A DNA stretch of 64,000 nt, from IMG/VR virus record IMGVR_UViG_3300031688_000006; one strand, written 5' to 3'. Shown here piece by piece: positions 11,924 through 30,036 of the stretch. Source of the stretch: an uncultured virus (IMG/VR IMGVR_UViG_3300031688_000006) (lineage: Duplodnaviria; Heunggongvirae; Uroviricota; Caudoviricetes). Under the pieces are notes generated by a model. It was given only the letters and a program-made list of their open reading frames with translations. It did not search any database and was not told the DNA's origin. The position numbers were made by a program, and so were the translations under genes. Positions within the stretch are counted from its first letter, which is position 1, and each line of letters starts with the position of its first letter.

Positions 11924-13561
11924 ATGTCAGATGATATTTTTATAAAACAGGACCAAGTTATAGGGCAACAACCCTTTATTAGTCAGACTGCGGTCAGTGG
12001 ACAAGCATATACAACATCACAAAGAGTCTATCAAGTTCCATCGATTGGACAGACTCCGTTTACATATGTAAATCGTACTCCTACTATAACACAAACGGCT
12101 TTAAATGTTCAGAATCCTTCAACTTATCAACATAGAAGTCCATTAACTTATCAACATAGAAGTCCGTCAACTTACAATCATAGAAGTCCTTTTACATATA
12201 ATCATAGGTCTCCGTTTACATATAACGCAAGACAACCGGCCAGCTATCAACATCAATCGCCTTCGACTTATCAGGTTAGTTATTCAAGACGAGAATCGTC
12301 TAACTATGACCATAGAAGTCCGTTTATAACGCAGGTTTCTAGAAGCGCACAAGAACCTAATATTACTCAGACTAGAACTCCGTTGATTTATCAACATCAA
12401 AGTACGTTTACCTATGACCATAGAAGTCCGTTGACATATGACCATAGGTCACCTGTTATTAGTCAGTCTACTTACAACCATAGAGAACCTATAATTTATC
12501 AAAGTAGAACCTCCGTGCAGAGTTCGTTTACTTATCAACATAGAAGTCCGTTTACTTACGACCATAGAGAACCAAGTACATATAATCATAGGTCATCTTT
12601 TCAGAGTCCGTTGATTTATCAACATCAAAGTCCTGCGACATATAATCATAGGTCATCTTTTCAAAGTCCGTTTACTTACGACCATAGAAGTCCGTTGACA
12701 TATGACCATAGGTCTCCGTTTATTTACCAAAACACTGCAAGTAAACAGACTACCGTTACTTACAACCATAGGTCGCCGTTGACATATGACCACAGGTCGC
12801 CGTTGACATATGACCATAGGTCACCATTTACATATGACCACAGAAGTCCTTTGACATATGACCATAGAAGTCCGTTGACATATAACCATAGGTCACCATT
12901 TACATATAGTAGAAGAACTCCTTTCATCTTTGATGGTGTAGATGGAGATGACGCTGGAGATAATTCAACAACTTGGGGTCCAGGCGATAGTAGTGCAATT
13001 GCATATGTTTCTGCTTCAGATGTAACTAGTAATCGTCTTTGGGATTCTACAGTAAATTCCAGTTCCGCATCTGGTGCTCACAATGCAAATTGCCAAATGA
13101 TTTTTAATTATCAAACAACTGGTTCAAACGCTAACACCCTTAGGGCCCGATGGCACATGGACAAATCAGCTCAAAGTACACAAATATCAAGATATGAAGA
13201 CTTTATTCAAAGTCATAGTCCAAGTGGTATCGATAGTTCTTGGTCATGGGATGTTAAATGGGAAACTACAACTGCGAGTCCAGGGTATTTCACCTCGAAT
13301 AACAACGGTATTGGAACCGGACCAAGTCTTGCTGAAGATACTTATCATAATGTATGGAATGGAACCACTGCTACTCAAAGACTATTCAAGTGGGAAGGTA
13401 GTACTTCTAACCAATCCGAGGCAGAAGTTAATCTTATCTCAGCTAATGTGAAATTCACTGTAAGAATATCGAAATCTGGAGAAACTTCTTTGTTTACATC
13501 GACTACAGCGCAATCGGTGTCAGTCTTCGTACTTAATACTGGCGGCGGAGGAGGTCCATAA
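11924..13561 (+). CDS. Mirror-pair 1 strand A: RSPxTYxH repeat protein with ~200-aa C-terminal globular domain
   Basis: aa 15-330 Pro-anchored 8/12-aa repeats; Trp/Ser/Thr-rich C-terminal domain ending TGGGGGP. Confidence 0.85.
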   Translation: MSDDIFIKQDQVIGQQPFISQTAVSGQAYTTSQRVYQVPSIGQTPFTYVNRTPTITQTALNVQNPSTYQHRSPLTYQHRSPSTYNHRSPFTYNHRSPFTYNARQPASYQHQSPSTYQVSYSRRESSNYDHRSPFITQVSRSAQEPNITQTRTPLIYQHQSTFTYDHRSPLTYDHRSPVISQSTYNHREPIIYQSRTSVQSSFTYQHRSPFTYDHREPSTYNHRSSFQSPLIYQHQSPATYNHRSSFQSPFTYDHRSPLTYDHRSPFIYQNTASKQTTVTYNHRSPLTYDHRSPLTYDHRSPFTYDHRSPLTYDHRSPLTYNHRSPFTYSRRTPFIFDGVDGDDAGDNSTTWGPGDSSAIAYVSASDVTSNRLWDSTVNSSSASGAHNANCQMIFNYQTTGSNANTLRARWHMDKSAQSTQISRYEDFIQSHSPSGIDSSWSWDVKWETTTASPGYFTSNNNGIGTGPSLAEDTYHNVWNGTTATQRLFKWEGSTSNQSEAEVNLISANVKFTVRISKSGETSLFTSTTAQSVSVFVLNTGGGGGP

Positions 13562-14673
13562 TGGCAACAGGACAACAACCACTAATATCGCAGGCACAAC
13601 AACCGGTAATTAGAAACCAACAAGAACCTAATATTAGAAACCAACAAGAACCTAATATCAGAAGTCAGCAAGAGCCCAATATTAGAAGTCAACAAGAGCC
13701 CAATATTAGAGTTCAGCAAGAGCCTAATATTAGAAATACTCAACAGCCTTCGATATATCAGAATTCTGTAAATTCTCAACAACCTAATATTAGAAATCAG
13801 CAAGAACCTAATATCAGAGTTGGTCAGGAAACTAATCAACAACCTAATATTAGAAATCAGCAAGAACCTAATATTCGTTCAAAACAAGTAACAGCACAAC
13901 AACCTACTATTAAGAATGCACAAAGTCCTTATATTAGAAATGCCCAAGACCCAAGCATAAGAACTGGTCAGGCGACAGTACAACAACCTAGTATTGCGAA
14001 TCTACAGTCTCCTTTAATTGCAAGAGCATCAATAGCCTCGCAAGAACCTAACATTAGAAGTCAACAAGAACCTAATATTAGAGTAAGTCGAGAACCAAAT
14101 ATTGCAAGTAGTCAGCAACCTAGTATTACTCAGACTAGAAGTCCCTTTATCTATAGGCACCCAATTAACGCTCAAGAACCTAACACTAGAGTACACCAGT
14201 CACCGGTGATTTCACAGGCGATTGCGAATAATCAACAACCTAATATTAGGGATGCTCAGACACCTTATATTGCTACTGGTCAAGAACCTAACATTAGAAA
14301 TCAACAAGAACCCAACATTAGAAATAATCAAGAACCTAACATTAGAAATCAACAAGAACCTAATATTAGAAGTAAACGAAGTCCTTCTATTGCACAACAA
14401 CCTACTATAAGTCAGCAACCTTATATTGCTAATGCACAACAAACTTATCAATTTACAACTGCGGTGCAACAAACTTACTTCCATAGGTCTCCGTTCATTT
14501 ACCAATCGAATACTAACAGTAATAGACCAATAGGTCCAGTTGCAAAAGTTAAAGGAGTATTCATAAAAGATGCTGATGGTACCGTAAAACCATCAACAAA
14601 AGTATTCGTTAAGAAAGACAGTTCAACAGTTGAGAAAATACATCAAGTACCTGCAACAGACTTTAACAAATAG
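13561..14673 (+). CDS. Mirror-pair 1 strand B: QEPNIRxQ repeat protein with C-terminal beta adaptor
   Basis: aa 5-320 repeats; TAATG overlap with previous gene; C-terminal KVKGVFIKDADGTVK..KVFVKKD. Confidence 0.85.
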   Translation: MATGQQPLISQAQQPVIRNQQEPNIRNQQEPNIRSQQEPNIRSQQEPNIRVQQEPNIRNTQQPSIYQNSVNSQQPNIRNQQEPNIRVGQETNQQPNIRNQQEPNIRSKQVTAQQPTIKNAQSPYIRNAQDPSIRTGQATVQQPSIANLQSPLIARASIASQEPNIRSQQEPNIRVSREPNIASSQQPSITQTRSPFIYRHPINAQEPNTRVHQSPVISQAIANNQQPNIRDAQTPYIATGQEPNIRNQQEPNIRNNQEPNIRNQQEPNIRSKRSPSIAQQPTISQQPYIANAQQTYQFTTAVQQTYFHRSPFIYQSNTNSNRPIGPVAKVKGVFIKDADGTVKPSTKVFVKKDSSTVEKIHQVPATDFNK

Positions 14674-15407: not shown

Positions 15408-17135
15408 ATGGCAACAGTAATTCAAATCAAAAGAAGTACAGGTTCCGCGGCTCCTTCAACTAGTAATCTAAGTGAAGGTGAAATGGCGTATGTACAAGAT
15501 AGAAGTAATTCTGGCGCATCTGCTAAACTATTCATCGAGTCAGTCGATGCCAGTAATAATGCAGCTATCCACTCAGTGGGTGGTAAGTATTATACTGATA
15601 TCGTTGACGGAACTTCAGCAACACCTGCTAACTTAAAAGTTGGTAATGGTTCTACTGCTGGTGCAACTTTACAAATCATGGAAGACTCCGATAACGGAAC
15701 AAACTTCGTTGGTCTTAAAGCTGCAGATGCTCTTGGAGCATCAGTAACTTTCACACTACCTAGTGCTGATGGTTCAAATGGACAAGTTATAGGAACAGAT
15801 GGTTCAGGAAGTCTTTCTTTCGTATCAACAACTTCAACCCTTGCTGGTGGTAGTGATGTAAGCATCACATCTGCTGCTGATGGAGCGATGTTATTATATG
15901 ATACAGGAACATCAAAATGGATCGATAATGTAATGTCTGGAGACGCCACTATGGCTGACACAGGTGTTCTAACTATTGGATCCCAAAAAGTCCTCAACTC
16001 TATGTTGGCTGACGATGCAGTTGGAGCTGATGAATTAGCTTCTAACGCAGTCGTAACGGCATCTATCGTTGACGCAAACGTAACAACTGCAAAAATCGCT
16101 GACGATGCTGTAGATGCTGATAAATTAGCATCAAGTGCCGTAGTATTCGCTTCATTAGCGGGTGCATTGGTTCAGGCATCTGGTGAAGCTTTCGCAGATA
16201 ACGACACAACTTTAATGACTTCAGCTGCTATTCAGGACAAAATCCAAGCATTAGCAACTACAGAAGACTTAGACCTTGCAGGTGATAGTGGAACTGGTGC
16301 AGTCGATTTAGACTCTCAGTCACTAACAGTCTCTGGTACAGCAAACGAAGTTGAAACAAGTGTTAGTGGAACGACTATAACAGTCGGTTTACCAAACAAT
16401 GTAACAGTCGCTAACAACTTAACAGTTTCAGGAAACTTAATATCAGACGATATTACAACTGCAACTTTAACAACATCTGGTAACTTAACAGTCACAGGAA
16501 ACTTGGCAGTTAATGGTACTACAACAACAGTAAACTCTTCAACAGTAAATATCGCAGACCCAGTTTTCGAAATTGGTTCAGATAGTTCAGACGATAACCT
16601 AGACAGAGGTATCAAATTTAAGTACAACTCCGGTGGTGCTAAGATTGGTTTCTTTGGTATGGATGATACAGATGGTTCTTTTGTTGCTCTAGAAAGTGCA
16701 ACAGATAGTTCATCTACATTCTCTGGTACTGCAATGGCTGGTAAATTCGGAAACTTAACTATTGCTAACGCAACAATGAGTGGAAGTATTAACAGTTATG
16801 CAGGTACTGCTCCTACAGATGGTCAAATCCTAATTGGTGACACATCTTCAGGTTTAATGGACAAAGCTACTCTTACTGCTGGTGACGGAATCGATATCAC
16901 TAATGGTGCAGGTTCTATATCAATCAGTGCTGAACAGTCAACTGCATCTAATTTAGGTGTTGTTATTGTCGCTGCTGGTGAAGGTATGGACGTTGCTTAT
17001 AGTGGTGGAACTGCTACGATTACTGGAGAAGATGCAACAGTATCTAACAAAGGTATCGCTAGTTTTGCTACAGCAAACTTTACTGTAACAAGTGGTGCAG
17101 TGGCTATCACTGCTATTGACGGTGGAACATTCTAA
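15408..17135 (+). CDS. Tail fibre-like protein (IQIKRS N-terminus, IDGGTF C-terminus)
   Basis: MATVIQIKRSTG..AP...L.EGE N-terminal domain; ADDAV.ADEL repeats; LTVTGNL.VNGTTTTVNS fibre motif. Confidence 0.7.
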   Translation: MATVIQIKRSTGSAAPSTSNLSEGEMAYVQDRSNSGASAKLFIESVDASNNAAIHSVGGKYYTDIVDGTSATPANLKVGNGSTAGATLQIMEDSDNGTNFVGLKAADALGASVTFTLPSADGSNGQVIGTDGSGSLSFVSTTSTLAGGSDVSITSAADGAMLLYDTGTSKWIDNVMSGDATMADTGVLTIGSQKVLNSMLADDAVGADELASNAVVTASIVDANVTTAKIADDAVDADKLASSAVVFASLAGALVQASGEAFADNDTTLMTSAAIQDKIQALATTEDLDLAGDSGTGAVDLDSQSLTVSGTANEVETSVSGTTITVGLPNNVTVANNLTVSGNLISDDITTATLTTSGNLTVTGNLAVNGTTTTVNSSTVNIADPVFEIGSDSSDDNLDRGIKFKYNSGGAKIGFFGMDDTDGSFVALESATDSSSTFSGTAMAGKFGNLTIANATMSGSINSYAGTAPTDGQILIGDTSSGLMDKATLTAGDGIDITNGAGSISISAEQSTASNLGVVIVAAGEGMDVAYSGGTATITGEDATVSNKGIASFATANFTVTSGAVAITAIDGGTF

Positions 17136-17176
17136 GGAAACTGAGAATATTTTAATTTAATCAATAGGAGATAGAC

Positions 17177-18001
17177 ATGGCAACAGTTATACAGTTTAAA
17201 AGAAGTTCTACTCAGAACGCAGTTCCGACTACAGGCAATTTAGCCTTAGGGGAACTGGCTGTCAATACTTATCACGGTAGATTTTATACCGAGAAGAATG
17301 ATGGTTCCGCTGCTGTTGTAGAGATTGGGTCTAACCCAAAAACTCTACAAATTAATGACGCTATAACATTTCCAACCAGTGATGGTTCAAATGGACAAGT
17401 TCTTACAACCAATGGTTCAGGAACAGTTTCATTTGAAACCTTAGGTGGTTCAGGTGTTTCAATTTACAAATACACCGTTTCGGGTAACCAAACTGTATTT
17501 ACAGGTAACGATGATGACAGTAATGCATTATCTTACACTGTAGGTTCAGAACAGGTATTCTTAAATGGTGTTAAGTTGATTGATGGTGGTGCAGATTATA
17601 CTGCAACAAACACAACGACTATTACGCTGGCGGAAACTGCAATTGCAGGTGATACAGTAGAAGTAGTAGCAGTCACGGCTGCTAATTTAGTACAAGGATT
17701 CTATACAAATAGTGTCTTTAGTGCAACTACTGCTAACCAAGTATTATCAAGTAATGCAGTTACGAATAAGGGTATTAAATATGTAATTACTGCCACTCAT
17801 GCGAGTGCAGGAACACATTCAGCCGAAGTATTATTAATCAATGATGGATCCAGTGCATATTTCGTCCAATATGGCGATATATTCAGTGCTGCTTCATTAT
17901 TTTCGTTGACTGCTGATGTTAATTCAGGAAACATGAGACTCTTATGTACACCTGCTAACACCAACACAACGGTTAATACTTTCCAAATAAGACAATCATA
18001 G
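17177..18001 (+). CDS. Fibre-associated protein
   Basis: MATVIQFKRS...L..GELAVN N-terminus; FPTSDGSNGQVL; shared C-terminal KY...H..E.L..HDG...QYG domain. Confidence 0.65.
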   Translation: MATVIQFKRSSTQNAVPTTGNLALGELAVNTYHGRFYTEKNDGSAAVVEIGSNPKTLQINDAITFPTSDGSNGQVLTTNGSGTVSFETLGGSGVSIYKYTVSGNQTVFTGNDDDSNALSYTVGSEQVFLNGVKLIDGGADYTATNTTTITLAETAIAGDTVEVVAVTAANLVQGFYTNSVFSATTANQVLSSNAVTNKGIKYVITATHASAGTHSAEVLLINDGSSAYFVQYGDIFSAASLFSLTADVNSGNMRLLCTPANTNTTVNTFQIRQS

Positions 18002-18012
18002 GGGGATAGAAA

Positions 18013-18423
18013 ATGGCTATAACAAGAAGTTTTAAACTTGCTGAATTTATTCGTCACATGTCTTATAACTCTAGTACAGATAGGATAGAAACAGTAAAAG
18101 AAATACAAGATGAGAATACATCAACGGGCGGAGTCACTAAGACTGCAACTACTGAATTTTCACTTGACAATTTTACTCATGCTACCTATAGAGCTGCGAG
18201 ATATATCGTGGCTATGTCAGAGGGAAGTAATTTCCATTCAACGGAGATAATGTTGGTACATGATGGTTCCACTGTTACTTTAACACAATACGGAACACTG
18301 AAAGATACTAACTTAGCGACATTTGATGCAGACATTAGTGGCACAACTGTTAGACTATTATGCACACCTGCGAGTACAAACTCAACGGTCATAAAGTTCA
18401 ACAGAACTACAGTAGAAGCTTAA
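18013..18423 (+). CDS. Fibre-associated protein, paralogue of the C-terminal domain of 17177 and 18501
   Basis: YRAARY...HSTEIMLVHDG...QYG...DISG..VRLLCTPA. Confidence 0.65.
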   Translation: MAITRSFKLAEFIRHMSYNSSTDRIETVKEIQDENTSTGGVTKTATTEFSLDNFTHATYRAARYIVAMSEGSNFHSTEIMLVHDGSTVTLTQYGTLKDTNLATFDADISGTTVRLLCTPASTNSTVIKFNRTTVEA

Positions 18424-18442
18424 ATACAGTAATTTATTATGT

Positions 18443-18468
18443 AAAGGGGACTTTTAGTCCCCTTTTTT
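18443..18468 (+). terminator. Intrinsic terminator
   Basis: AAAGGGGAC-TTTTA-GTCCCCTTT plus T-tract. Confidence 0.85.
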
Positions 18469-18500
18469 GAGCTCAATATAAAAATAACATAAATAACACC

Positions 18501-19319
18501 ATGGCATCAAAAGTAAAATTTTTCGCAGATTTAGGTGTTCAGTCGAAACTAAACACCCAAGTAGATGGCGACCTCACTGTTGCAGGTAACTTGACTGTTA
18601 CCGGAAATTCACTAACCGTTAATTCGACCACAACTTCTGTTGGCGATTCTATGTTCGAATTCGCAAATCAGAATACTGAAGCAGATTTAATCGATATTGG
18701 TTTCTACGGAAACTATAACGATGGTTTATCAGATGGTGGTGCATCTGAATACACAGGTCTATTCAGAGATGCATCGGATTCTACATGGACATTATTTGAT
18801 GGTTTAGAAGTAGAACCAGGGACTACAGTTAATACTAGTGGTTCGGGTTACGCACTTGCTGATTTAAAACTTGGAGATTTGACATCTTCAACATTGACGG
18901 CAGCTGGGTTACTATATCCTACTTCAGATGGTTCTAACAATCAAGTCTTAATGACTAATGGTTCAGGACAATTATCGTTTCAAGATGCTGGGTCAGGATT
19001 GACAGCAGGTACAGTCACAACAACTTCTACCACTATCACGAATTTAGACACGATGGCAATTGCAAGTTATAGGGGTGCAAAGTACACTGTAACAGTCTCA
19101 GACGCTACAGGAGGCGATTACGAGATAACAGAGATACATGTGATACATGACGGCACTAATGCGAGTATAACGCAGTTTGGTACAGTATTACAGGGTACTT
19201 CTAGTGAGTTGGGAACATTCTCAGTAGATATTGATTCAGGAAATCTAAGATTAAGAGTTACATCCTCCTCTTCTAATTCAACTGTATACAACTTCAAGAG
19301 AATCGACCACTCAACATAA
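18501..19319 (+). CDS. Fibre-associated protein
   Basis: GNLTVTG fibre motif, YTGLFRDASD, same C-terminal domain as 17177 and 18013. Confidence 0.65.
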   Translation: MASKVKFFADLGVQSKLNTQVDGDLTVAGNLTVTGNSLTVNSTTTSVGDSMFEFANQNTEADLIDIGFYGNYNDGLSDGGASEYTGLFRDASDSTWTLFDGLEVEPGTTVNTSGSGYALADLKLGDLTSSTLTAAGLLYPTSDGSNNQVLMTNGSGQLSFQDAGSGLTAGTVTTTSTTITNLDTMAIASYRGAKYTVTVSDATGGDYEITEIHVIHDGTNASITQFGTVLQGTSSELGTFSVDIDSGNLRLRVTSSSSNSTVYNFKRIDHST

Positions 19320-19637: not shown

Positions 19638-22207
19638 TGACAAGTAAGAATTTCATAATCAAAAACGGCTTAACAGTAGGAACTACTGAAGTCATAACAT
19701 CTGCTGGTGTAGTTACTGGTGCAGGTGTCAACGAGGCAGTTGACGATAGAGTCAATTCACTATTAACAGCAGGTGCAGGCATTGGGCTTGCATATGATGA
19801 CGCTGCTGGAACATTGACAATCACAGGTAATGTTGGGGACATCACAGGCGTAAACGCTGGTGCTGGTCTAACAGGAACTGCAACATCTGGTGATGCAACA
19901 CTAAACATTGGTGCTGGTACAGGTATTACTGTAAACGCCGATAACATTGCAATCAATTTCAAAGACGAAGACAATATGTCTTCAAACAGTGCAACTCATG
20001 CCGCTACTCAACAATCAGTCAAGGCATATGTAGATTCACAAATACAAACCAAAGATAATACAGACGAAATCACTGAAGGTTCAAATCTTTACTTTACAAA
20101 TGAAAGAGTAGATGACAGAGTTAATGCATTACTAGTTGCCGGAACAGGTATTACATCTACATACGATGATGCCGCTGGAACACTTACACTTAACGGACAA
20201 GTTGGTGATGTAACAAGTGTCGTATCAGGAACTGGTCTAACAGGTGGTGGAACGAGTGGTGATGTAACAGTAAATGTTGTTGGTGGTACAGGTATAATCG
20301 CAAATGCGAATGATATCGCAATCGATACTTCTGTAACAGTAGATTTAACTACTAGTCAAACACTTTCAGGCAAAACACTAACATCTCCAATCTTAAATAC
20401 TGCTCTATCTGGTACTGCATTCTTAGACGAAGACGACTTCTCAAGTAATGCGAATGATAAAGTTGCATCTCAACAATCTATTAAAACATATGTTGATGCA
20501 TCTGTTGCCGCTAAAGACAATACAGACGAGATAACAGAAGGTTCAAGTAACTTATACTTTACAAATGCAAGAGCAGACGCTAGAATAACTAACGCATTAG
20601 TTGACGAAGACAATATGGCTTCAGATAGTGCTACTAAAGTTGCATCACAACAAAGTATTAAGGCATATGTAGATTCAAGTGTTGCCGCTAAAGATAATAC
20701 AGACGAAATTACAGAAGGTTCAAACCTTTATCACACCACTGCAAGAGCAAGAGCATCTATAAGTGCTGGTGGTGACTTAGCATACAACAGTACAACTGGT
20801 GTAATGAGTTTCACGAACGATGCAGGAGATATTTCTTCAGTAGTCGCTGGAACTGGTACAACAGGTGGCGGAACTGCTGGTGATGTAACAATAAATGTTA
20901 TTGGCGGAGAAGGTATCACTGCAAACGCAAACGATATCGCATTATCATCCTCAGTTGCTGGTGATGGTCTTGCATTCTCATCTGGTGTTTTGAATGTAGA
21001 AGTAGACGATAGTTCTATAGAAACAAGTTCAGATACATTACAAGTAAAAGCAGGTGGTGTTACTAACGCCATGTTGGCAGGTTCTATTTCAAATGCTAAC
21101 CTTGCAGGTTCAATCGCAAACGCAAAATTGGCCAACTCATCAATTACAATAGACGGAAGTGCTGTTGCATTGGGTGGTTCAATTACTACTAATAACACAC
21201 AACTTACACAAGAAAATGTAGAAGACTTTGTTGGTGGTATGTTAGATGGTACCGAAACAGGTATCTCTGTATCATACGATGACACTGCTGGTAATCTTGA
21301 TTTTGTCGTAAGTGGTGTCACAAATGCCATGTTGGCTGGTTCAATCAACCAAGACAAACTTGCAGGTTCAATTGCAAACGCAAAACTTGCTAACAGTGTA
21401 ATAACGATTGATGGTCAATCTACTGCATTGGGTGGTTCAGTCACAACAACTAATACACAAAGAAGTCAAGAAGAAATTGAAGACTTCGTTGGTGGTATGC
21501 TAGATGGTACCGAAACAGGTATCTCAGTATCATATGATGATACAGATGGCAACATCGACTTTGTTGTAGACAACTCAGACTTCGCTCTAACAGGCGATGT
21601 TACTGGTACTGTTACTCAGACTGCAAAAGGTAATGTGTCTATTTCAACAACAATCGCTGCTAACTCAGTTGCACTTGGCTCAGATACAACAGGTAATTAT
21701 ATTGCCGCTGTGAGTGCAGGTACTGGTATCTCAGTAAGTGGTTCTGGTGAAGGCGCAACATCAACAGTCAGTATTGGACAGGCAGTTGCAACATCCGATA
21801 ATGTTCAGTTTGCAAACTTAGTGTTATCAGGCAACTTAACAGTTAATGGTGCAACAACTACAGTTAGTTCAACTAACACAGCAATCGAAGATGCATTGAT
21901 AGAATTAGGGACAGGTACTTCAGGTACGCCTTCTAACGATGCTGGTTTTGTTATTGAAAGAGGAAGTTCCGACAATGTATTCATTGGTTGGGACGAGAGT
22001 GCAGATGCTATAACATTTGGTACTGGTAGTTTTACTGGTGCATCTACAGGTAATTTAAGTATTACACCAAGTGCAGTTAATACAGGCGCCTTGACGATTA
22101 CTAATGCTAGTAACTCAGGCGGAACTGCGAGAAACATATTTCAGTCAACATCAGCTCCAGGCGGAAGTGATGGCGCAGTTGGCGATTTATGGGTTCTCTA
22201 CTCTTAA
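19637..22207 (+). CDS. Tail fibre / virion fibre protein 2
   Basis: Repeated TDEITEGSNLYFT.xR, GDITxVxAGxGLTG and EDFVGGMLDGTETGISVSYDD modules; ends STSAPGGSDGAVGDLWVLYS. Confidence 0.75.
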   Translation: MTSKNFIIKNGLTVGTTEVITSAGVVTGAGVNEAVDDRVNSLLTAGAGIGLAYDDAAGTLTITGNVGDITGVNAGAGLTGTATSGDATLNIGAGTGITVNADNIAINFKDEDNMSSNSATHAATQQSVKAYVDSQIQTKDNTDEITEGSNLYFTNERVDDRVNALLVAGTGITSTYDDAAGTLTLNGQVGDVTSVVSGTGLTGGGTSGDVTVNVVGGTGIIANANDIAIDTSVTVDLTTSQTLSGKTLTSPILNTALSGTAFLDEDDFSSNANDKVASQQSIKTYVDASVAAKDNTDEITEGSSNLYFTNARADARITNALVDEDNMASDSATKVASQQSIKAYVDSSVAAKDNTDEITEGSNLYHTTARARASISAGGDLAYNSTTGVMSFTNDAGDISSVVAGTGTTGGGTAGDVTINVIGGEGITANANDIALSSSVAGDGLAFSSGVLNVEVDDSSIETSSDTLQVKAGGVTNAMLAGSISNANLAGSIANAKLANSSITIDGSAVALGGSITTNNTQLTQENVEDFVGGMLDGTETGISVSYDDTAGNLDFVVSGVTNAMLAGSINQDKLAGSIANAKLANSVITIDGQSTALGGSVTTTNTQRSQEEIEDFVGGMLDGTETGISVSYDDTDGNIDFVVDNSDFALTGDVTGTVTQTAKGNVSISTTIAANSVALGSDTTGNYIAAVSAGTGISVSGSGEGATSTVSIGQAVATSDNVQFANLVLSGNLTVNGATTTVSSTNTAIEDALIELGTGTSGTPSNDAGFVIERGSSDNVFIGWDESADAITFGTGSFTGASTGNLSITPSAVNTGALTITNASNSGGTARNIFQSTSAPGGSDGAVGDLWVLYS

Positions 22208-22234
22208 TAAATAACCATTTAAGGATTATATAAT

Positions 22235-24196
22235 ATGGCGACAGGTTCACAAAAGGTCAAAACACCCACAGGTTGGAATTCTACAAGAGGTGCATGGGTA
22301 AAAACTGCATCAGGTACTTGGAAAGATGCAGAACAAATCTATGTCAAGACTCCAACAGGTTGGAATAACGCATCAGGACAGGCAAGTGTCCAACAACCTT
22401 ATCCGTACATTGCTAACAATCAAGAACCCAATATAAGAAATAGGCAAAACCCTTATCCTTATATTGCTAATGCTCAAGAACCGAATATAAGAGATGCACA
22501 ACAACCGTATCCTTATATTGCTAATGCTCAAGAGCCTAATATTAGAGATGCAAGACAACCTGCGATTTATCAAAATCCAGTAAGCGCACAAGAACCTAAT
22601 ATTAGAAACCAACAAGAACCTAATATTAGAAGTCAACAAGAACCTAATATTAGACCGGCGAGACAACCTTCTACATATCAACATAGAAGTCCGTCAACAT
22701 ATAGAGACCCTAGAACATATCAACATCCGACTACCTATCAGCATAGAAGTCCTTTGACTTATCAGCATAGAAGTCCGTTGACATATAACCATAGGTCGCC
22801 GTTGATTTATCAACATCAATCGCCTTCTACATATAGTAATAGACAACCTAGTACATATAATCATAGGTCACCTTATCAGAGTCCGTTTACTTACAATCAT
22901 AGAAGTCCGTTGACATATAACCATAGGTCACCGTTTACATATCGTAATCCGTTTACCTATAACCATAGAAGTCCTCTAACATATAACCATAGGTCTCCTT
23001 ATAGAAGTCCGTTCACTTATCAACATAGAGAACCGAACACTTATAACCATAGGTCACCTTATCAGAGTCCGTTCACTTATCAACATAGAGAACCGAACAC
23101 TTATAACCATAGGTCACCGTTTACATATCGTAATCCGTTTACCTATAACCATAGAAGTCCTTTAACATATAATCATAGAAGTCCTTACACTTATAACCAT
23201 AGGTCACCGTTTACTTACCGTAATCCGAGTACCTATAACCATAGAAGTCCTTCAACATATAATCATAGAAGTCCTTACACTTATAACCATAGGTCGCCAT
23301 TTACATATCGTAATCCGTTCACCTATCGTAATCCGTTTACATATAACCATAGGTCACCGTTTACATATCGTAATCCATTTACCTATCGTAATCCGTTTAC
23401 ATATAATCATAGGTCGCCGTTTACATATCGTAATCCGTTTACCTATCAGTTGCCGTTCACATATAACGCAAGACAACCGTTTACATATAACGCAAGACAA
23501 CCAGGCACATATAACAACAGACAACCGTTCACTTACAATCATAGAGAACCGTATACTGTTAATGCAAGACAACCGTTTACATATAATGCTCGTACTGGAG
23601 TTAATGTCCAATCTGTTGGACAACAACCAAGTATTTACTCATTCCGTAACCCGTTCAACTTCCCAGGTGGTGGCGGAGGTTGCTTCGCTCCAGGTTCATT
23701 GATATGGCTTGCAGATGGAAGTCATTCGCCTATTGAAGATTGTGTTCTTGGTCAATATGTAATGACTTGGAACGAAAGTACAAAACTTCTAGAACCTAGA
23801 GAGATATCTCTAATCATGCAACCAAGAATGTGTCCTATATTTGATGTTACATTCTCAGATGGAAGAGTATTACAAATGACTGATACTCATCCATTAATGT
23901 TACCAAATGGTCAATGGGGTGCATTAGATGTTGAGAAATCAGTTAGAGAACATGAATGGATGCAAGATATAGAAACTCATGAAATCGCAATTGGCGATAG
24001 TATCTTTAGTATGTTAGATGGTATAATGTTTGACAGACAAGATGAAATGGGCTTAGAAATAGTATCTGTAGAAGAACATTCAGAGATGGAAGTACATAAC
24101 TTAAGTGGAGTTCAAGACAACAATAACTTCTTTGTTAATGGAATGCTCGCTCATAACTTTGGTAATCAGTTCCAGTCTCCACAGGTTAAGAACTAA
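22235..24196 (+). CDS. Mirror-pair 2 strand C: N-terminal VKT..GW adaptor, 418-aa repeat array, C-terminal Hint domain
   Basis: aa 1-52 three VKTxxGxW repeats; aa 53-470 QEPNIR then RSPFTYNH repeats; GGGGG-CFAPG...TDTHP...FFVNGMLAHN. Confidence 0.85.
   Translation: MATGSQKVKTPTGWNSTRGAWVKTASGTWKDAEQIYVKTPTGWNNASGQASVQQPYPYIANNQEPNIRNRQNPYPYIANAQEPNIRDAQQPYPYIANAQEPNIRDARQPAIYQNPVSAQEPNIRNQQEPNIRSQQEPNIRPARQPSTYQHRSPSTYRDPRTYQHPTTYQHRSPLTYQHRSPLTYNHRSPLIYQHQSPSTYSNRQPSTYNHRSPYQSPFTYNHRSPLTYNHRSPFTYRNPFTYNHRSPLTYNHRSPYRSPFTYQHREPNTYNHRSPYQSPFTYQHREPNTYNHRSPFTYRNPFTYNHRSPLTYNHRSPYTYNHRSPFTYRNPSTYNHRSPSTYNHRSPYTYNHRSPFTYRNPFTYRNPFTYNHRSPFTYRNPFTYRNPFTYNHRSPFTYRNPFTYQLPFTYNARQPFTYNARQPGTYNNRQPFTYNHREPYTVNARQPFTYNARTGVNVQSVGQQPSIYSFRNPFNFPGGGGGCFAPGSLIWLADGSHSPIEDCVLGQYVMTWNESTKLLEPREISLIMQPRMCPIFDVTFSDGRVLQMTDTHPLMLPNGQWGALDVEKSVREHEWMQDIETHEIAIGDSIFSMLDGIMFDRQDEMGLEIVSVEEHSEMEVHNLSGVQDNNNFFVNGMLAHNFGNQFQSPQVKN
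23681..24157 (+). other. Hint (intein-like) autoprocessing domain, 159 aa, no endonuclease
   Basis: Cys1 (CFAPGSLIWLADG), block B TxxH (TDTHP), terminal HN; +1 residue is Phe. Confidence 0.85.
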
Positions 24197-24242
24197 TGAA
24201 TCTAATAATCAATAAAAACATGATAGTAAGGGGTAATATCTA

Positions 24243-25571
24243 ATGCCACAACAACCGGTAATAGCAAACGCTCGAGCGAGTGTCAGGTCCCCTAGTATAG
24301 GACAACAACCTTACATTGCAAATGGTCAAACTCCATTTATTCAACCTACGCAGGGTCCTGCTATAAGAAACGGCCAGACACCGTACATCGCTAATAGTCA
24401 GACGCCTTATATTGCTAATGGACAGACACCTTATATTGCTAATGCGAGGTCGCCTAGAAACGGTCAATCGCCTAGTAATGCACAAGAACCTAATATTAGA
24501 AGTGCTCAGTCACCTAGTAATGCTCAGTCACCTAGTAACGCACAAGAACCTAACATTAGAAGTGCCCAGTCACCTAGTAATGCTCAGTCACCTAGTAACG
24601 CACAAGAACCGAACATTAGGTCTATACAAGAACCTAATATTAGAAACAATCAGCAACCTAATATTAGAAATGCTCAGACGCCTAGTAACGCACAAGAACC
24701 GAACATTAGGTCTATACAAGAACCTAATATTAGAGCTCAACAAGAACCTAATATTAGAAGTGCCCAGTCACCTAGTAACGCACAAGAACCTAATATAAGA
24801 AGTTATCAGTCTCCTTATATTGCGAGCGCACAACAGTCTGCTCAAGAACCTAATATAAGAAGTTATCAGTCTCCTTATATTGCGAATGCTCAGCAAACAG
24901 CACAACAACCTAACATTAGAAACCAACAAGAACCTAATATTAGAAATGGTCAGTCACCTAGTAATGCACAAGAACCTAACATTAGAAGTCAACAAGAACC
25001 TAATATTCGTTCAGCACAACAATCAGCACAAGAGCCGAATATCAGAAATGCTCAGACTCCTTATATTGCGAATGCACAAAATCCATTTGCTAGAAGTCAA
25101 CAAGAACCTAACATTAGAAACCAACAAGAACCTAATATTAGAGCTCAACAAGAACCTAATATAAGAAACAGACAGACTACTTCTAATTATCAGAATCCTG
25201 TAAATGCTCAGAATCCATTTATTAGAAATGCTCAGACACCATTTACATATGACCATAGAAGTCCGTTGACATATGACCATAGGTCACCATTGACTTACAA
25301 TCATAGAAGTCCGTTTACTTACAGAAATCCTTCAAGTAGTCAGACTCCGTTTACTTATGACCATAGAAGTCCTTCGACATATGCTAGACAAGGTCAAACA
25401 CCTTTCACATATCAACATCAAAGTCCTTCAACATATGCTAGACAAGGTCAAACACCTTCTACTTATGACCATAGAAGTCCTTCGACATATGCTAGACAAG
25501 GTCAGACAACTGTTATCCGTGGGGATGGTGTTCTATCGCAAACGTGGCCAGGCACTCCTATATCGTCATAA
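24243..25571 (+). CDS. Mirror-pair 2 strand D: 418-aa repeat array
   Basis: aa 3-420 QEPNIR/QSPSNA then RSPxTYDH repeats; almost no non-repeat sequence. Confidence 0.85.
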   Translation: MPQQPVIANARASVRSPSIGQQPYIANGQTPFIQPTQGPAIRNGQTPYIANSQTPYIANGQTPYIANARSPRNGQSPSNAQEPNIRSAQSPSNAQSPSNAQEPNIRSAQSPSNAQSPSNAQEPNIRSIQEPNIRNNQQPNIRNAQTPSNAQEPNIRSIQEPNIRAQQEPNIRSAQSPSNAQEPNIRSYQSPYIASAQQSAQEPNIRSYQSPYIANAQQTAQQPNIRNQQEPNIRNGQSPSNAQEPNIRSQQEPNIRSAQQSAQEPNIRNAQTPYIANAQNPFARSQQEPNIRNQQEPNIRAQQEPNIRNRQTTSNYQNPVNAQNPFIRNAQTPFTYDHRSPLTYDHRSPLTYNHRSPFTYRNPSSSQTPFTYDHRSPSTYARQGQTPFTYQHQSPSTYARQGQTPSTYDHRSPSTYARQGQTTVIRGDGVLSQTWPGTPISS

Positions 25572-25598
25572 ATATAAGACAATTTAGGAATTTACATT

Positions 25599-27167
25599 AT
25601 GAGTATCAAAAGCAAATCATTCGAGCATACAAAGGAATTACTCCAAGGACTCGACCCAACAGATAAGAGTTTTCATCTACAGTTGGGTCAGTTCGATGTT
25701 CTAAAAGACTACAAAGAAACCGACACATACAAATCATTAAAGTATGTTACAGAGAATCACACCGGAAAACTAAAACAAGTTAAATGGGGTGACATGACTA
25801 AACTAATCAAGGAAGAGAAATTTCTTGGTTGGAATAAACTACAGTCCCATGCATGGGCATATCATTACTTTCTACCCCACGGATATACTGCACCACCTGA
25901 AACTCCTGTACCAGGAATTTCGTCCATGGATTTCAAAAATTCAAATAACGAATATCAGAAGATGCAAGACTTCACTGATAAAGACTTTGACGACCAACAG
26001 AATAACAGTATCAACTCTGTATATTATCATGGCGCCAAGGCTCATTGGTTAGTAGACAGTATCAGAGAAGAGGGTTTATGGAATGCGATTCAAGGCACCG
26101 TAAGTACAGCAGGTAAAAATCGTCATGGAGAATTGATGTATCAGTTATCAATACATCCAGGTTCAGTTCGTTCTGGTGTATTTGAAACAATGAATGACCC
26201 AAATTTAGATTTATGGATATGGGACAATCATGATGCTATACCTTTGCCAGAGACATCTATAGATGATATGATTGATGAGATGAAAGGACAACTTGTAGAA
26301 CGAGATGCAGAACACTATTCAATATCTTTTGCATATACTCGTGGTTACTTAGAGATACATAGTGACTTGTTGAAGATGAACTTCAGAGGAAGTGTAACCG
26401 ATTATAACATGAAAGTGAACCAGTTGTCAAAGGGTAAACATCTAAACATATACATTGGTTATGATTCTAGACATACTAATATCGCTGAGTTAAGTGCAAA
26501 GTGTGTTAAAAGTAGTATATTATCTGGTGCCGGTAGAGGCGATGTGCATGATATGTTGGGAGATTGGACTCCTGAGGTTAAGTATCTTGACATATCAAAG
26601 ATTCCAGAGTATACTAGAGAGTATGCAGCTCAATCAACAGAGTTCACATATAGTAGATTCTTAATTCCTTACTTAGAAAACTATGAAGGATTTAGTATTT
26701 TTATTGATGATGATATACTATTCAATGAAAGTATCTTACCAATGTTCTACTACTTAGACTTAGATGATGCAGTTGCATGTGTACAGTATGATTTTGATAG
26801 TTATGCTGAAACAAAATTTAACGGTGAAAAGAATGTATCTTACCCTAAAAAACTTTGGTCATCATTAATGATATTTAATAATGGTCACGAAGACTGTAAG
26901 AAACTTACACCAGAAGTTGTTAATACTGAAAGTGGTAAATATCTACATCAATTCGAATGGACAGATAAGATATCAGAGATACCAGAGTGGTATGTTATAA
27001 CAGAAGGACACGATACAATAGAAGATAAGTGGCGTGCTTGTGCTGTACATTACACACGAGGCGGTCCTTGGATTGAGGGTATGGATACCTCTCAGATAGA
27101 ACACCTAAATATGTATGAGAAATTAAGAAACAAACATCAACCAAAAGAGGTGTTTAAGTGGTCTTAA
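25599..27167 (+). CDS. Two-domain protein with C-terminal GT-A glycosyltransferase (GT8-like)
   Basis: IYIGYDSR, STEFTYSRFLIPYL, FIDDDILF (DxD), KLWSSLMIFN, VHYTRGGPW; N-terminal domain weakly ParB/Srx-like. Confidence 0.75.
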   Translation: MSIKSKSFEHTKELLQGLDPTDKSFHLQLGQFDVLKDYKETDTYKSLKYVTENHTGKLKQVKWGDMTKLIKEEKFLGWNKLQSHAWAYHYFLPHGYTAPPETPVPGISSMDFKNSNNEYQKMQDFTDKDFDDQQNNSINSVYYHGAKAHWLVDSIREEGLWNAIQGTVSTAGKNRHGELMYQLSIHPGSVRSGVFETMNDPNLDLWIWDNHDAIPLPETSIDDMIDEMKGQLVERDAEHYSISFAYTRGYLEIHSDLLKMNFRGSVTDYNMKVNQLSKGKHLNIYIGYDSRHTNIAELSAKCVKSSILSGAGRGDVHDMLGDWTPEVKYLDISKIPEYTREYAAQSTEFTYSRFLIPYLENYEGFSIFIDDDILFNESILPMFYYLDLDDAVACVQYDFDSYAETKFNGEKNVSYPKKLWSSLMIFNNGHEDCKKLTPEVVNTESGKYLHQFEWTDKISEIPEWYVITEGHDTIEDKWRACAVHYTRGGPWIEGMDTSQIEHLNMYEKLRNKHQPKEVFKWS

Positions 27168-27192
27168 AGAAAAATTAAATTATGGAGTTATT

Positions 27193-27744
27193 ATGAATAT
27201 GTTAATTTATTGTGAGAATGGTCATCTTACTATCAGAAAACCAAATGGCCTAGAATGGAGACATGAGAATGTCGACAAACCAGAATTGGGATTTGACTAT
27301 GATGTTTTAATCTATGATGATATCGAAGTTAAGATTATGGAGTGGAAAGACGATGTTCAGTTTGATGACCAAGTTAAACTTTCACTTACAGATGTAGAGT
27401 CAGATGCAATTGAGAATTACATTGAGAATTCTACACCACCTAATGATGTAACATTAGCAAATCAATACAGTCAACAAATCAATGATGTTTGTAGAGAGTA
27501 TACAGAACAACAAATGAATTCTTATGGATTCGAAAGTTTAGTAGATACTATGGCAGCTGCGAGAGATGGTTCAAATCATCCTTTAAGGTCAGATGCAAGA
27601 CGAGCATTAGAATACTATGATGTAATGTGGAATATTTACATCAATGTAATGAATGAAGTCAAGGCAACTAGAGAAGATTTATTACCAAATGTTGATGACT
27701 TCATTAATAGATTTCCTCAACCGCAACAAGCATTGATTGAATAG
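27193..27744 (+). CDS. Hypothetical protein, possibly tail-fibre assembly/chaperone-like
   Basis: GGAG SD; helical C-terminal half; located after the fibre genes. Confidence 0.45.
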   Translation: MNMLIYCENGHLTIRKPNGLEWRHENVDKPELGFDYDVLIYDDIEVKIMEWKDDVQFDDQVKLSLTDVESDAIENYIENSTPPNDVTLANQYSQQINDVCREYTEQQMNSYGFESLVDTMAAARDGSNHPLRSDARRALEYYDVMWNIYINVMNEVKATREDLLPNVDDFINRFPQPQQALIE

Positions 27745-27748
27745 TAGT

Positions 27749-28492
27749 ATGTCTAAGTTTGACTTAGAAATAGTTGAGATAGATAAACCCTTTGCTATCC
27801 AAGAGATGCCTTTGGGAAATAAAATCTATGTGATTGATGACTATCTTGAACCAGCGATACATCGTTGGGTTCATAAAACTATTAGTCAAGGACCTAGATG
27901 GTCTAAATCGAATCAAGTAAACGCACAACATCCTACAGGTTTACCGCACCACTCCCTTTGGGGAGCATCTTTCTTTAAGACAGATAATAATGGCGCACCG
28001 ATGATGGAAAAGGGCGAAAATGATTGGACAACTGAGTCCGCTAGATGGTTTAATAGAAGAATATGTACAGATTTTCAATTCAAATGGAAAAGATTTCAAT
28101 ACATGGGCACCAATTCTCAGACTCATGGTCAACACGGAACAACTCACTCAGATTGTGCAGCTGAAGATGATTGGAACATATCGTTTCTATATTATTACAA
28201 CACATTCTGGAATCCTGCATGGGGTGGTGATTTAAGATTCTATGAACCCGATGTTTATCAAGCAGGTTTAGACGGTAGAGATGAACACATAGAAAAACAT
28301 TCAATAGGCAGTGTCGAGTTTAAACCAAACAGACTATTGATGTTTGACGGAAGAATACCTCATGGTGCAGATGCACCAAATTCTAGGGCCAGATACGCAG
28401 ACAGATGTTCTATAGTACTTAGAGGTGACGAAATAGAACTTATTGAAAAGGAAGAATTATATAATGCCAACGATAGATTTCACTACATTTAA
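27749..28492 (+). CDS. 2OG-Fe(II) oxygenase
   Basis: HSD...WGGDLRFY...FKPNRLLMFDGRIPH...R (HxD/H/R triad). Confidence 0.8.
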   Translation: MSKFDLEIVEIDKPFAIQEMPLGNKIYVIDDYLEPAIHRWVHKTISQGPRWSKSNQVNAQHPTGLPHHSLWGASFFKTDNNGAPMMEKGENDWTTESARWFNRRICTDFQFKWKRFQYMGTNSQTHGQHGTTHSDCAAEDDWNISFLYYYNTFWNPAWGGDLRFYEPDVYQAGLDGRDEHIEKHSIGSVEFKPNRLLMFDGRIPHGADAPNSRARYADRCSIVLRGDEIELIEKEELYNANDRFHYI

Positions 28493-29336
28493 CGAAGAGA
28501 GTCTTAGAGACTTTAAACCGGTTTTAGCTAAATCTCTAGCACCCGATTGGTTTAAAAAGATGAAAGTCTTTCAACACGATAGAGGTAAGAGAATGCAAAC
28601 TATTCGTGCTTGTCCTGCTATGGATGACTGGTTAAAATCTGGTTGGTTGATTCTTGCAAATAGAGACATGGAAGTTAATGTAGATGGTCCCTTTACATAT
28701 ACAACTGATGCTGAAGAGAATGAAAAGAAAAGTGGTACTAACGAATTTCAAGATTCCAGAAAACAAGGTCAGGCATCTCCTTCTCATCCAGCAGGTCAGT
28801 TTGGTTATGCATTTAGTTATCTAGGTGAAGACGGTCCAGTTAAAGATGCATTTAAAATGAGAAATGCCTGGAACATAATAACACCTAAAGGGTATTCATG
28901 TTTTTACTTAGACCCATTTCTATTTCAAAACAATCACTTCGCAACATGGCAGGGTGTTATAGATACAGACGACTTTAATATCAATCAAGACAATTCACAA
29001 ATTATTTTCTATCCCAAAGTTAAACACTCCTTTGTTATACCAAAAGGAACTCCTTTGGTTCAAATCATACCGTTCAAAAGAGAAGAGTGGGTGGCAACAT
29101 ATCAATTAAAAGATGAGAAGTCCTGGCACACCGACAGAGGTGAAAACAGACATCAAGATTTGCCTGGAATGGATGAAATAAATAGAACTAAGTATGCCAA
29201 ACTTACAGATGAGAATCCAAATCAAATGGGTGCTTACAGAGCTGAAGGTCATTGGAAAAGTAAAGGTAAAAACTTTAAAGAAATGGAACCACCACCAGAG
29301 TGTCCGTTTCATAAAGGAGATGTAGATGGCGATTAA
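28464..29336 (+). CDS. Conserved phage protein (DUF6065 / dUTPase-like beta fold)
   Basis: CPAMDD...GW, W.I.TPKGYS, GVIDTD, IPKGTPLVQIIPFKRE motifs. Confidence 0.55.
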   Translation: MPTIDFTTFNEESLRDFKPVLAKSLAPDWFKKMKVFQHDRGKRMQTIRACPAMDDWLKSGWLILANRDMEVNVDGPFTYTTDAEENEKKSGTNEFQDSRKQGQASPSHPAGQFGYAFSYLGEDGPVKDAFKMRNAWNIITPKGYSCFYLDPFLFQNNHFATWQGVIDTDDFNINQDNSQIIFYPKVKHSFVIPKGTPLVQIIPFKREEWVATYQLKDEKSWHTDRGENRHQDLPGMDEINRTKYAKLTDENPNQMGAYRAEGHWKSKGKNFKEMEPPPECPFHKGDVDGD

Positions 29337-30036
29337 ATTATTCAGTCCAGCAGTAATATGTATGAGACAATGGTTGAGAGAACCAGAAGATAAAGTAGAA
29401 GGACTTACTCCTGAATATTTCGAACTATTGAAGAACGAAATGGATGCGATGAGAACGAGAGACCCACAAGGAAGAAATAGGTCTAATGCTGGTCATGGTT
29501 GGCAGTCAAATGATGGTATAGATAATAATCCCATATTCAATAAGTTGATGAGAAACATTAAGAAGATGGCTCAGAACGAACTGTTAGGATACTGTGGATT
29601 TGTACCTGGTGCTGGTCAAGTTAATATGCATAATGCTTGGGGAAACATAAACTACAAACATGGATTCAATCAACCTCATTTACATAATGGGTGTAGTTAT
29701 TCTGGTGCTTGTTATATCAATGCAGATGGTGATGAAGGTGATATTAGATTCATAGAGACGGCAAAACATTTTGTGGGTATGCCTGTGGGTACTCCTAGAA
29801 TGGAAGAGTCGTGGGGTATACAACCTAAAACAGGAGACATAGTTTTGTTCCCTAGTGGGTTGATGCATATGGTATCAGTAAACACGACAGATAAAGATAG
29901 ATATAGTATCTCATTCAACATGGACTTGAGTGTACCTGAAAATGATAGAGCCAGTTTCATTGATGATGATGAGGCAAAGATAGAAAAACTTGATAATATT
30001 TTCAAAACAGACCACTTCGGCAAGCTTATTCAGTAG
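29326..30036 (+). CDS. Putative 2OG-Fe(II) oxygenase (TIGR02466-like)
   Basis: W.NIN..., PHLH, SGACY, P.TGDIVLFPSGLMH.V, RYSISFN. Confidence 0.8.
   Translation: MAIKLFSPAVICMRQWLREPEDKVEGLTPEYFELLKNEMDAMRTRDPQGRNRSNAGHGWQSNDGIDNNPIFNKLMRNIKKMAQNELLGYCGFVPGAGQVNMHNAWGNINYKHGFNQPHLHNGCSYSGACYINADGDEGDIRFIETAKHFVGMPVGTPRMEESWGIQPKTGDIVLFPSGLMHMVSVNTTDKDRYSISFNMDLSVPENDRASFIDDDEAKIEKLDNIFKTDHFGKLIQ

Follow-up and report, generated by a model that had tools for sequence, protein, structure and literature searches.

Mirror-ordered repeat arrays in adjacent genes of an uncultured T4-like phage suggest an antiparallel two-chain fibre shaft

Why would two neighbouring phage genes encode proline-rich repeat arrays in which the same irregular series of unit lengths runs in opposite directions? 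This question is raised by genes C and D in a 64,000-nucleotide stretch of DNA from an uncultured virus of the Caudoviricetes (IMG/VR record IMGVR_UViG_3300031688_000006), which is referred to here as the window. An earlier reading made from the letters alone (the sequence-only reading) had noticed the mirror and proposed that both proteins zip into one long antiparallel filament. In the current study, we have compared C and D with a second gene pair of the window, A and B, and with related pairs from IMG/VR. Based on these comparisons, we consider it probable that the C and D chains associate in antiparallel orientation, unit against unit, and form a fibre shaft encoded in a host-recognition cluster. 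The two genes consist of the following parts.

22235..24196, plus strand: gene C, an intact open reading frame of 653 amino acids (aa) with base motif, repeat array, poly-Gly stretch and Hint domain.
22235..22390, plus strand: C residues 1-52, the conserved 'base' motif KVKTPTGWN...WVKT..GTWK...IYVKTPTGWN.
22391..23665, plus strand: C residues 53-477, the Pro-anchored array of 4-, 6- and 8-residue units, with mirror register i+j = 478.
22839..23187, plus strand: tandem duplication of 186 nucleotides (nt; 62 aa) in C, consisting of 22839-23001 and 23025-23187, 87% identical.
23666..23683, plus strand: poly-Gly stretch G478-G482 of C followed by C483 (PGGGGGCFAP), with a predicted autocleavage site before the Cys of G/CF.
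23681..24157, plus strand: C residues 483-641, a predicted Hint/intein-type domain with Cys1, T549..H552 and H640-N641; the +1 residue is F642.
24243..25571, plus strand: gene D, an intact open reading frame of 442 aa with an array spanning residues 2 to about 421, followed by a short C-terminal tail that is conserved.
24716..25078, plus strand: internal duplication of 186 nt in D, consisting of 24716-24892 and 24902-25078, 80% identical.

C contains 71 prolines and D contains 56. In a reversed cross-correlation of their positions, a single ungapped register (i_C + j_D = 478) places 50 of the 56 D prolines opposite a C proline, while the best forward register yields 24 coincidences. The shuffle check proposed in the sequence-only reading gave a mean of 19.6 coincidences over 2000 shuffles of the D Pro-to-Pro intervals (standard deviation 2.8, maximum 31; z = 11), and a slip by one octapeptide cuts the Pro-Pro coincidences of C and D from 50 to 39 or 30. 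The series of 4-, 6-, 8-, 10- and 12-residue units, earlier described as an exact mirror, was reproduced in this ungapped register; its 418-aa sum and its cut convention (start + end = 473) are consistent with register 478. The word exact is too strong in one respect, as lone prolines occur at 13 of the 63 anchors. The earlier claim of complementary unit types was borne out by the interval table, in which the QEPNIR/PYIAN part of C lies opposite the xTYxHRSP/STYARQ part of D, and vice versa. Along each chain, the units run from QEPNIR/PYIAN to xTYxHRSP in C and from PYIAN through QEPNIR/QSPSNA to xTYDHRSP/STYARQGQ in D, and their lengths include three-unit super-periods such as 6,6,8 and 8,8,4. 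Even the internal duplications are exact mirrors of each other, D residues 159-217 and 221-279 corresponding to C residues 261-319 and 199-257 (i+j = 478). An AAGGA Shine-Dalgarno-like site is present upstream of C, and D is preceded by a ribosome-binding site of its own (AAGGGG).

The window contains a second pair of the same type, in which the start of B overlaps the stop of A.

11924..13561, plus strand: gene A (pair 1), 545 aa, with an xTYxHRSP array followed by a globular C-terminal domain of about 200 residues that ends in GGGGGP.
13561..14673, plus strand: gene B (pair 1), 370 aa, with a QEPNIR array and a base-like motif at the C-terminus.

Residues 53-333 of A fall on residues 287-7 of B as an ungapped mirror with 26 Pro-Pro coincidences (28 prolines in A, 34 in B; z = 6.6 against interval shuffles). 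The cross combinations A-D and C-B remained at background, with best scores of 14-17 in both directions. The C-terminus of B is weakly resembled by the base motif of C (BLASTP E 8e-6 over 21 aa).

To what extent the mirror is kept among relatives was examined with a scan of IMG/VR using D, which yielded 71 loci. Two complete adjacent repeat open reading frames were present in 50 of these, and the other 21, in which the pair is cut by a contig end or a single repeat open reading frame is found, were left out. Adding the two window pairs gave 52 pairs, of which 37 are distinct (35 from IMG/VR and 2 from the window). The reversed score was far above the forward score in all 37 distinct pairs, with register constants from 300 to 598 and 21 different values. 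Unequal array length in homologues, which the sequence-only reading had named as a check, did not abolish the mirror, and 30 of the 37 pairs were gapless; the gapped mirror-alignment script, which splits long gaps into small ones, was used only for this distinction between gapless and gapped pairs. Within the arrays of the 37 pairs, 3055 Pro-Pro spacings are even and 98 are odd, in agreement with the even unit lengths reported earlier. With the mirror score defined as the best reversed count divided by the smaller proline count, cognate pairs reached a mean of 0.85 and non-cognate pairs 0.49. A foreign partner tied with or beat the cognate partner only when it came from a near-identical relative, apart from exceptions that involve mismatched pairs.

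The lengths of the two proteins also change together. The array span derived from each protein alone was rejected as a measure of length (r = 0.65), being too noisy because missing prolines break the spans, and whole-protein lengths within tip classes were used instead. In pairs with a Hint tip, the first gene (gene 1, as C) is longer than the second (gene 2, as D) by 203-218 aa, while gene 2 itself spans 264-489 aa, and the lengths of both genes correlate with r = 1.000 (9 distinct length pairs); the automatic rule for tip classes misassigned two Hint-type pairs (588/378 and 774/562). Insertions behave in the same way in the relative L001, which is 90% identical to the window pair in gene 1 and 87% in gene 2. 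Its gene 1 carries insertions of 10 aa at 365-374 and of 20 aa at 435-454 relative to the window, for which the mirror predicts insertions in gene 2 at 134-143 and 54-73; they were observed at 133-142 and 55-74.

The opposition of unit types extends throughout the family. Among the 371 distinct facing 8-residue units, 337 set a Tyr-type unit (xTYxHRS) against an Ile-type unit (NIRxxQE, YIANxQx or SNAQx), a further 6 are homotypic and the remaining 28 unclassed. Mutual information between the chains was computed within 317 distinct Tyr/Ile unit pairs, with offsets counted after the proline, and was significant mainly at odd offsets, which correspond to one face of an extended strand. The signal is also local: for offset 1 of the Tyr-unit, the coupled facing offsets are 1 and 3 (z of 26 and 35), and for offsets 5 and 7 they are again 5 and 7 (z 22-31). 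The coupling with offset 2 of the Ile-type unit is weaker (z 8-11), and distant offsets reach z values of about 1-4. Even offsets of the Tyr-unit are nearly invariant (T in 277/317 and R in 284/317), while the Ile-type unit is nearly invariant at offset 6 only (I in 309/317). The coupled states include H with R versus A with A, S with N versus Q/E with Y, and F with A/G versus L with Q. The directly facing unit gives a signal of 0.55-1.13 bits, compared with 0.05-0.44 bits for units shifted by 1-6 (shuffle nulls 0.03-0.39), and this restriction of the covariation to the directly opposite unit is as direct contact predicts. A second peak at unit shifts 1-6, corresponding to a contact one turn away in a wound two-chain solenoid, was not seen.

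The two ends of the arrays differ in their conservation. In the C/D family, gene 1 is nearly invariant over its N-terminal ~50 residues and gene 2 over its C-terminal tail (..VIRxDG..SQxWPGTPIxS in D, kept in relatives) whatever the length of the array, which suits an attachment 'base', and the base motif of gene 1 is kept regardless of the type of tip. In register 478, the C N-terminus comes to lie beside the D C-terminus, and the end of the C array beside the start of D. At this other end, gene 1 of the relatives has three kinds of endings: a Hint domain (the case in C), a globular domain that ends in poly-Gly (the case in A), or no domain. A Gly run is found at this variable end in nearly all of them. 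In the tip-less pairs (L026, L034, L039, L040, L050 and others), gene 1 ends with ...GGG..EP and gene 2 begins with MPIG 10-51 nt further on; here, the chain ends themselves would be the distal tip.

The tail of C (residues 483-641) is assigned to the Hint/intein-type domains and predicted to be self-cleaving. It matches PF14890 with E 2.3e-6 over profile positions 2-155 of 155, with a score of 27.9 bits that is under the curated 35.8, and in a PDB sequence search it matched DnaB mini-intein chains (4o1r, E 1.6e-4; 1mi8, E 0.18). The residues G478-G482 and the nucleophile C483 are invariant in 6/6 aligned sequences. Equally invariant (6/6) are a TxxH motif in QMTDTHPL (T549, H552) and a terminal HN in MLAHN (H640, N641), which we take to be the intein Block B motif and the C-terminal His-Asn of Hint/intein domains. 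Protein splicing by inteins needs a Cys, Ser or Thr after the terminal Asn. The residue after N641 is F642, invariant in 6/6, and therefore cleavage is expected and splicing is not. Only 12 residues of C remain beyond N641. An AlphaFold2 prediction of C 471-653 from the single sequence was unusable, with a predicted local distance difference test (pLDDT) score of 30.8. In the phage isolate collection, the Hint tail matched helicase inteins only (27-39% identity). This domain, the three tip architectures and the setting in a host-recognition cluster were absent from the sequence-only reading.

Based on these observations, we propose a scheme for the C/D fibre. C and D would run alongside each other with opposite polarity, held in the one register i_C + j_D = 478, and each 4-, 6- or 8-residue unit would face a unit of equal length and opposite type in the partner chain. 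The even spacing would fit extended beta-type strands with the prolines on one side and in the same hydrogen-bond parity; by general beta-sheet geometry, opposed prolines would occupy positions at which the backbone NH is directed outward from the other chain. The aperiodic succession of lengths and types among the units could act as a register code that penalises slipped pairing. The C N-terminus and the D C-terminus would form the base that joins the virion, and the end of the C array with the start of D the distal tip, where the Hint domain probably cuts itself off between G482 and C483. This would leave a poly-Gly end like that of gene 1 in relatives without a Hint domain. The resulting object may consist of a single two-chain C-D ribbon, or several ribbons may be bundled, as in (C-D)3. 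Whether the pair should be seen as a protein analogue of a nucleic-acid duplex, in which a small unit alphabet and a residue sub-code specify a unique register over ~420 residues, appears to us evenly balanced. The antiparallel filament of the sequence-only reading thus stands in part: in-register antiparallel complementarity passed all comparative tests, and we infer physical pairing, strand geometry, virion topology and Hint cleavage from the sequences. The length of up to roughly 140 nm proposed there would apply to fully extended chains.

The pairing of C and D is supported by a mirror that is kept at varied lengths, by compensated indels, by opposite unit types and by local covariation, and these observations also bear on the other explanations that can be offered. 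The one nearest to our proposal is a bundle, for example three C-D ribbons on a threefold axis that form a six-stranded gp37-like needle, split into two genes at the tip. We regard it as tentative and rather unlikely, although phage fibres are usually trimers and the near-invariant even offsets are as expected of a conserved inter-ribbon face. The T4 gp37 stem, as far as described in the part of PMC6957217 considered here, likewise has ascending and descending stretches with the tip at the turn. On the other hand, HxH motifs are missing from all four proteins of the window (0 in A, B, C and D), a profile scan gave no match to Pfam gp37 families, and the covariation lacks the second peak at unit shifts 1-6 that was mentioned above. 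That C and D fold separately, as a homotrimeric beta-helix or a solenoid whose width follows the unit length, and form rods that run next to each other or are measured by a common length ruler without strand pairing, is improbable. Octapeptide repeats are known from the T4 gp5 beta-helix (in the part of PMC3004832 considered), the three-unit super-periods would fit such a fold, and B has a weak match to PF22178 Gp5_trimer_C (E 0.0023, 18.5 bits, below the 30.9 cut-off). Yet side-by-side rods need neither an exact mirroring of single 4-residue units, nor a 337-to-6 rule of opposite types, nor residue covariation limited to the directly facing unit. In addition, C and D lack a gp5-type match, and D alone has no predicted fold: AlphaFold2 with a 6-row alignment gave a pLDDT of 30.8 and no secondary structure, which is weak evidence against self-folding.

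The absence of an AlphaFold2 structure for D could also be read as disorder, with C and D being extended, largely disordered Pro-rich proteins of the virion or of the host surface that are modified by the neighbouring enzymes, and the mirror resulting from a constraint other than binding. The GT8 glycosyltransferase and the two 2OG-Fe(II) oxygenases encoded directly after D would agree with such substrates. Neither disorder nor shared modification predicts that unit order is reversed, that types are opposed, that indels are compensated or that covariation is specific to units, however, and we give this explanation very little weight; modification and pairing are compatible with each other. Least probable of all is that the mirror is a genetic by-product, the D array being an inverted copy of the C array read antisense, or both arrays pairing as RNA. 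An inverted duplication read antisense does predict reversed order, equal unit lengths and swapped types, and Watson-Crick plus G-U pairing is slightly raised (44% at offset -9, against 39% in the parallel control and at most 38% in 30 shuffles). However, over 1254 nt and with 121 offsets tried, reverse-complement identity rises no higher than 36%, compared with 39% for the plain-reverse control and 36% for the forward one, and the interval 22000-25700 contains only 2 inverted repeats, of 16-17 nt. The recent duplications (80-87% identical within each gene) and the likewise recent 10- and 20-residue indels are mirrored without reverse-complement identity, and therefore a past inversion cannot explain the continuing co-variation. 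Both the DNA reverse complement and the RNA duplex were rejected, the pairing excess being small and far from that of a duplex.

Several observations weigh against the antiparallel pairing of C and D or limit its support. At 13 of the 63 listed anchor positions, proline is present in one chain only (e.g., in C PYP doublets and D QQSA units), and at the degenerate ends of the arrays the unit series varies with the anchor chosen. Gaps are needed in 7 of the 37 distinct pairs: in L015, gene 2 contains one additional residue, L034, L035 and L051 show shifts in multiples of 44 residues, L040 differs by 10 to 18 residues, and L065 and L066 have small displaced indels. Five of these (L015, L034, L035, L040 and L051) are each found on a single contig, while matched forms recur on up to 8 contigs, and the single-contig mismatched pairs may be uncompensated evolutionary intermediates or collapsed repeats in short-read assemblies. 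The covariation z-scores overstate the independence of the data because the unit pairs share ancestry through duplication and descent, and the unit-shift control covers shared descent only in part. Both arrays are basic, with 49 K+R and 12 D+E plus 24 His in C (22391-23665) and 35 K+R and 20 D+E in D (24246-25505). Charge complementarity is therefore not the driver of pairing, and the putative C-D duplex would have a large net positive charge. Phage fibres are typically trimeric, and a long two-strand fibre would be unusual. An ESMFold2 complex of C 197-325 with D 153-281, based on 6-row alignments and run without controls, gave an interaction score (ipSAE) of 0.00/0.00 (mark 0.32) and is uninformative either way.

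Is a comparable arrangement known from other systems? C and D are adjacent genes on the same strand, with equal units in reversed order and of opposite types, and the arrangement is conserved; in these respects, they constitute a mirror-coded two-gene pair. The closest known design is the needle stem of T4 gp37 (domain D11, PDB 2XGF), where, in the part of PMC6957217 considered, an outgoing stretch lies against a returning one with the tip at the turn (ascending 882-931, descending 960-1009, tip 932-959 between them), and which is likewise a host-recognition fibre part of a T4-like phage. Both gp37 stretches, of ~50 residues each, are in one chain of a homotrimer stabilised by iron-binding His motifs, whereas C and D are two genes with ~420 residues each, Pro-punctuated and without sequence match to gp37. 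As a positive control, the mirror test was applied to His, Gly and aromatic residues of the gp37 stem; it gave no signal, since this stem lacks Pro anchors and is too short. The C-terminal triple-stranded beta-helix of T4 gp5 shares an eight-residue periodicity with a kink residue and the role of a phage structural protein, as presented in the part of PMC3004832 considered. It differs in that its three identical chains run parallel, its repeat is VxGxxxxx and a partner gene is lacking, whereas C and D have a Pro rather than a Gly anchor and aperiodic 4/6/8 units mirrored in a second gene. The antiparallel coiled-coil arms of the SMC/Rad50 type are similar in their long antiparallel stretches with insertions matched to hold the register. 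These arms are alpha-helical and formed by one chain, in contrast to the two genes, the even beta-type periodicity and the discrete unit alphabet of C and D. Collagen-like or polyproline-II repeats were rejected, with no run of at least 3 G-x-y triplets and with the even spacing described above (3055/3153). As far as the available part of PMC13730344 goes, the chains of fibre dimers on a rope protein described there are unrelated to C and D.

For the C tail, the likeness to Hint-superfamily domains (inteins, bacterial intein-like domains and the Hedgehog C-terminal domain) consists of the Cys of G/CF, the TxxH-type motif and the terminal HN, and a literature search on this point yielded no published description of a Hint domain that ends a repeat fibre protein. 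The self-cleaving C-terminal chaperone modules of trimeric fibres and tailspikes resemble the C tail as C-terminal fibre modules that are probably removed after helping assembly and that sit at the end from which folding presumably proceeds. They differ in fold and chemistry, with a Ser-Lys peptidase in place of a Hint thioester, and a Pfam scan of C gave no match to such modules. C-terminal chaperone modules of phage fibres are covered by a general statement in the part of PMC3004832 considered.

The genomic setting is consistent with a role in host recognition. According to gene annotation, the window corresponds to the structural region of a T4-like myovirus, with genes for baseplate wedge, neck, terminase, sheath, tube, portal, prohead protease, scaffold and major capsid proteins. 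Its nearest cultured phages by capsid protein are Methylophilales phage Melnitz (66% identity) and the Pelagibacter phages HTVC008M (64%) and Mosig (63%). The C/D pair lies amid fibre genes, flanked by a VrlC-like giant gene and neck genes, and the following neighbours are of interest here.

2258-9049: giant open reading frame of 2263 aa, VrlC-like (DUF4815, E 7e-63; phrog_358).
25599-27167: GT8-type glycosyltransferase directly downstream of D (PF01501, E 2.6e-5).
Within 25599-30036, downstream of D: two 2OG-Fe(II) oxygenases (PF13640, E 2.7e-8; PF13759, E 3.3e-18).

The giant open reading frame apparently corresponds to the VrlC-like gene at the border of the host recognition cluster in pelagimyophages. 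In these phages, the same interval is a hypervariable 'host recognition cluster' that holds fibres and glycosyltransferases, according to the part of PMC7029224 considered; the words 'proline' and 'intein' are absent from the main text of that paper. The glycosyltransferase and the oxygenases downstream of D could, judged from their domain matches, hydroxylate or glycosylate Pro-rich fibre proteins. Elsewhere in the region, at 15408-19319, the genes at 15408 and 17177 have a common N-terminus (MATVIQxKRS), and those at 17177, 18013 and 18501 have a common C-terminal module (..VxLLCTPAxTNxTV.. / ..LRVTSSSSNSTV..). These shared ends are suggestive of module swapping within a family of small fibre or adaptor proteins.

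The family of C and D is small and known only from uncultured marine T4-like phages. In a search of 1.84 billion representatives, 172 representative clusters were found at a threshold of E <= 0.001; this number fell to 92 at 1e-10 and to 12 at 1e-30. In the phage isolate collection, tblastn gave no match for D, and likewise none for the base motif of C, and no relatives of D or of this base motif were found in Melnitz, HTVC008M and Mosig, with G001 as positive control for the search method. A PDB sequence search with D had no match at E <= 1, and D scored at most 0.83 in the ESM Atlas, short of the level that shuffled proteins also reach. The single match of the C array in this collection, in Vibrio phage F23s1, was rejected as spurious because it falls in a 24-nt tandem repeat open in several frames. 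The end of that genome (L081 1-450) carries ~18 perfect copies of this repeat, open in three plus and two minus frames. No longer relative in the form of a fused single-chain hairpin was found at E <= 1e-10, which is weak evidence. Self-mirroring better than the protein's own forward shift was found in 0 of 106 representatives (at least 250 aa and at least 20 Pro; 16 of at least 700 aa), and in none of the 74 proteins of the 37 pairs. A published description of a mirror-coded pair or of the QEPNIR repeat was not found in the full-text literature, supplements lying outside this search.

If the two chains pair, C and D would be the first natural case known to us of two proteins that set a long, unique antiparallel register by a simple unit code. 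They would represent a natural programmable heteroduplex fibre, with length and register written in the sequence and both 'strands' edited by compensating insertions, and would provide a principle by which programmable protein fibres and rulers could be designed. The proposed location at the fibre tip would also give a testable role for the Hint-type, predicted self-cleaving domain. For the phages that carry these genes, the pairing of C and D would explain how fibre length changes stepwise, by a duplication in one gene that is followed by the mirror duplication in the other.

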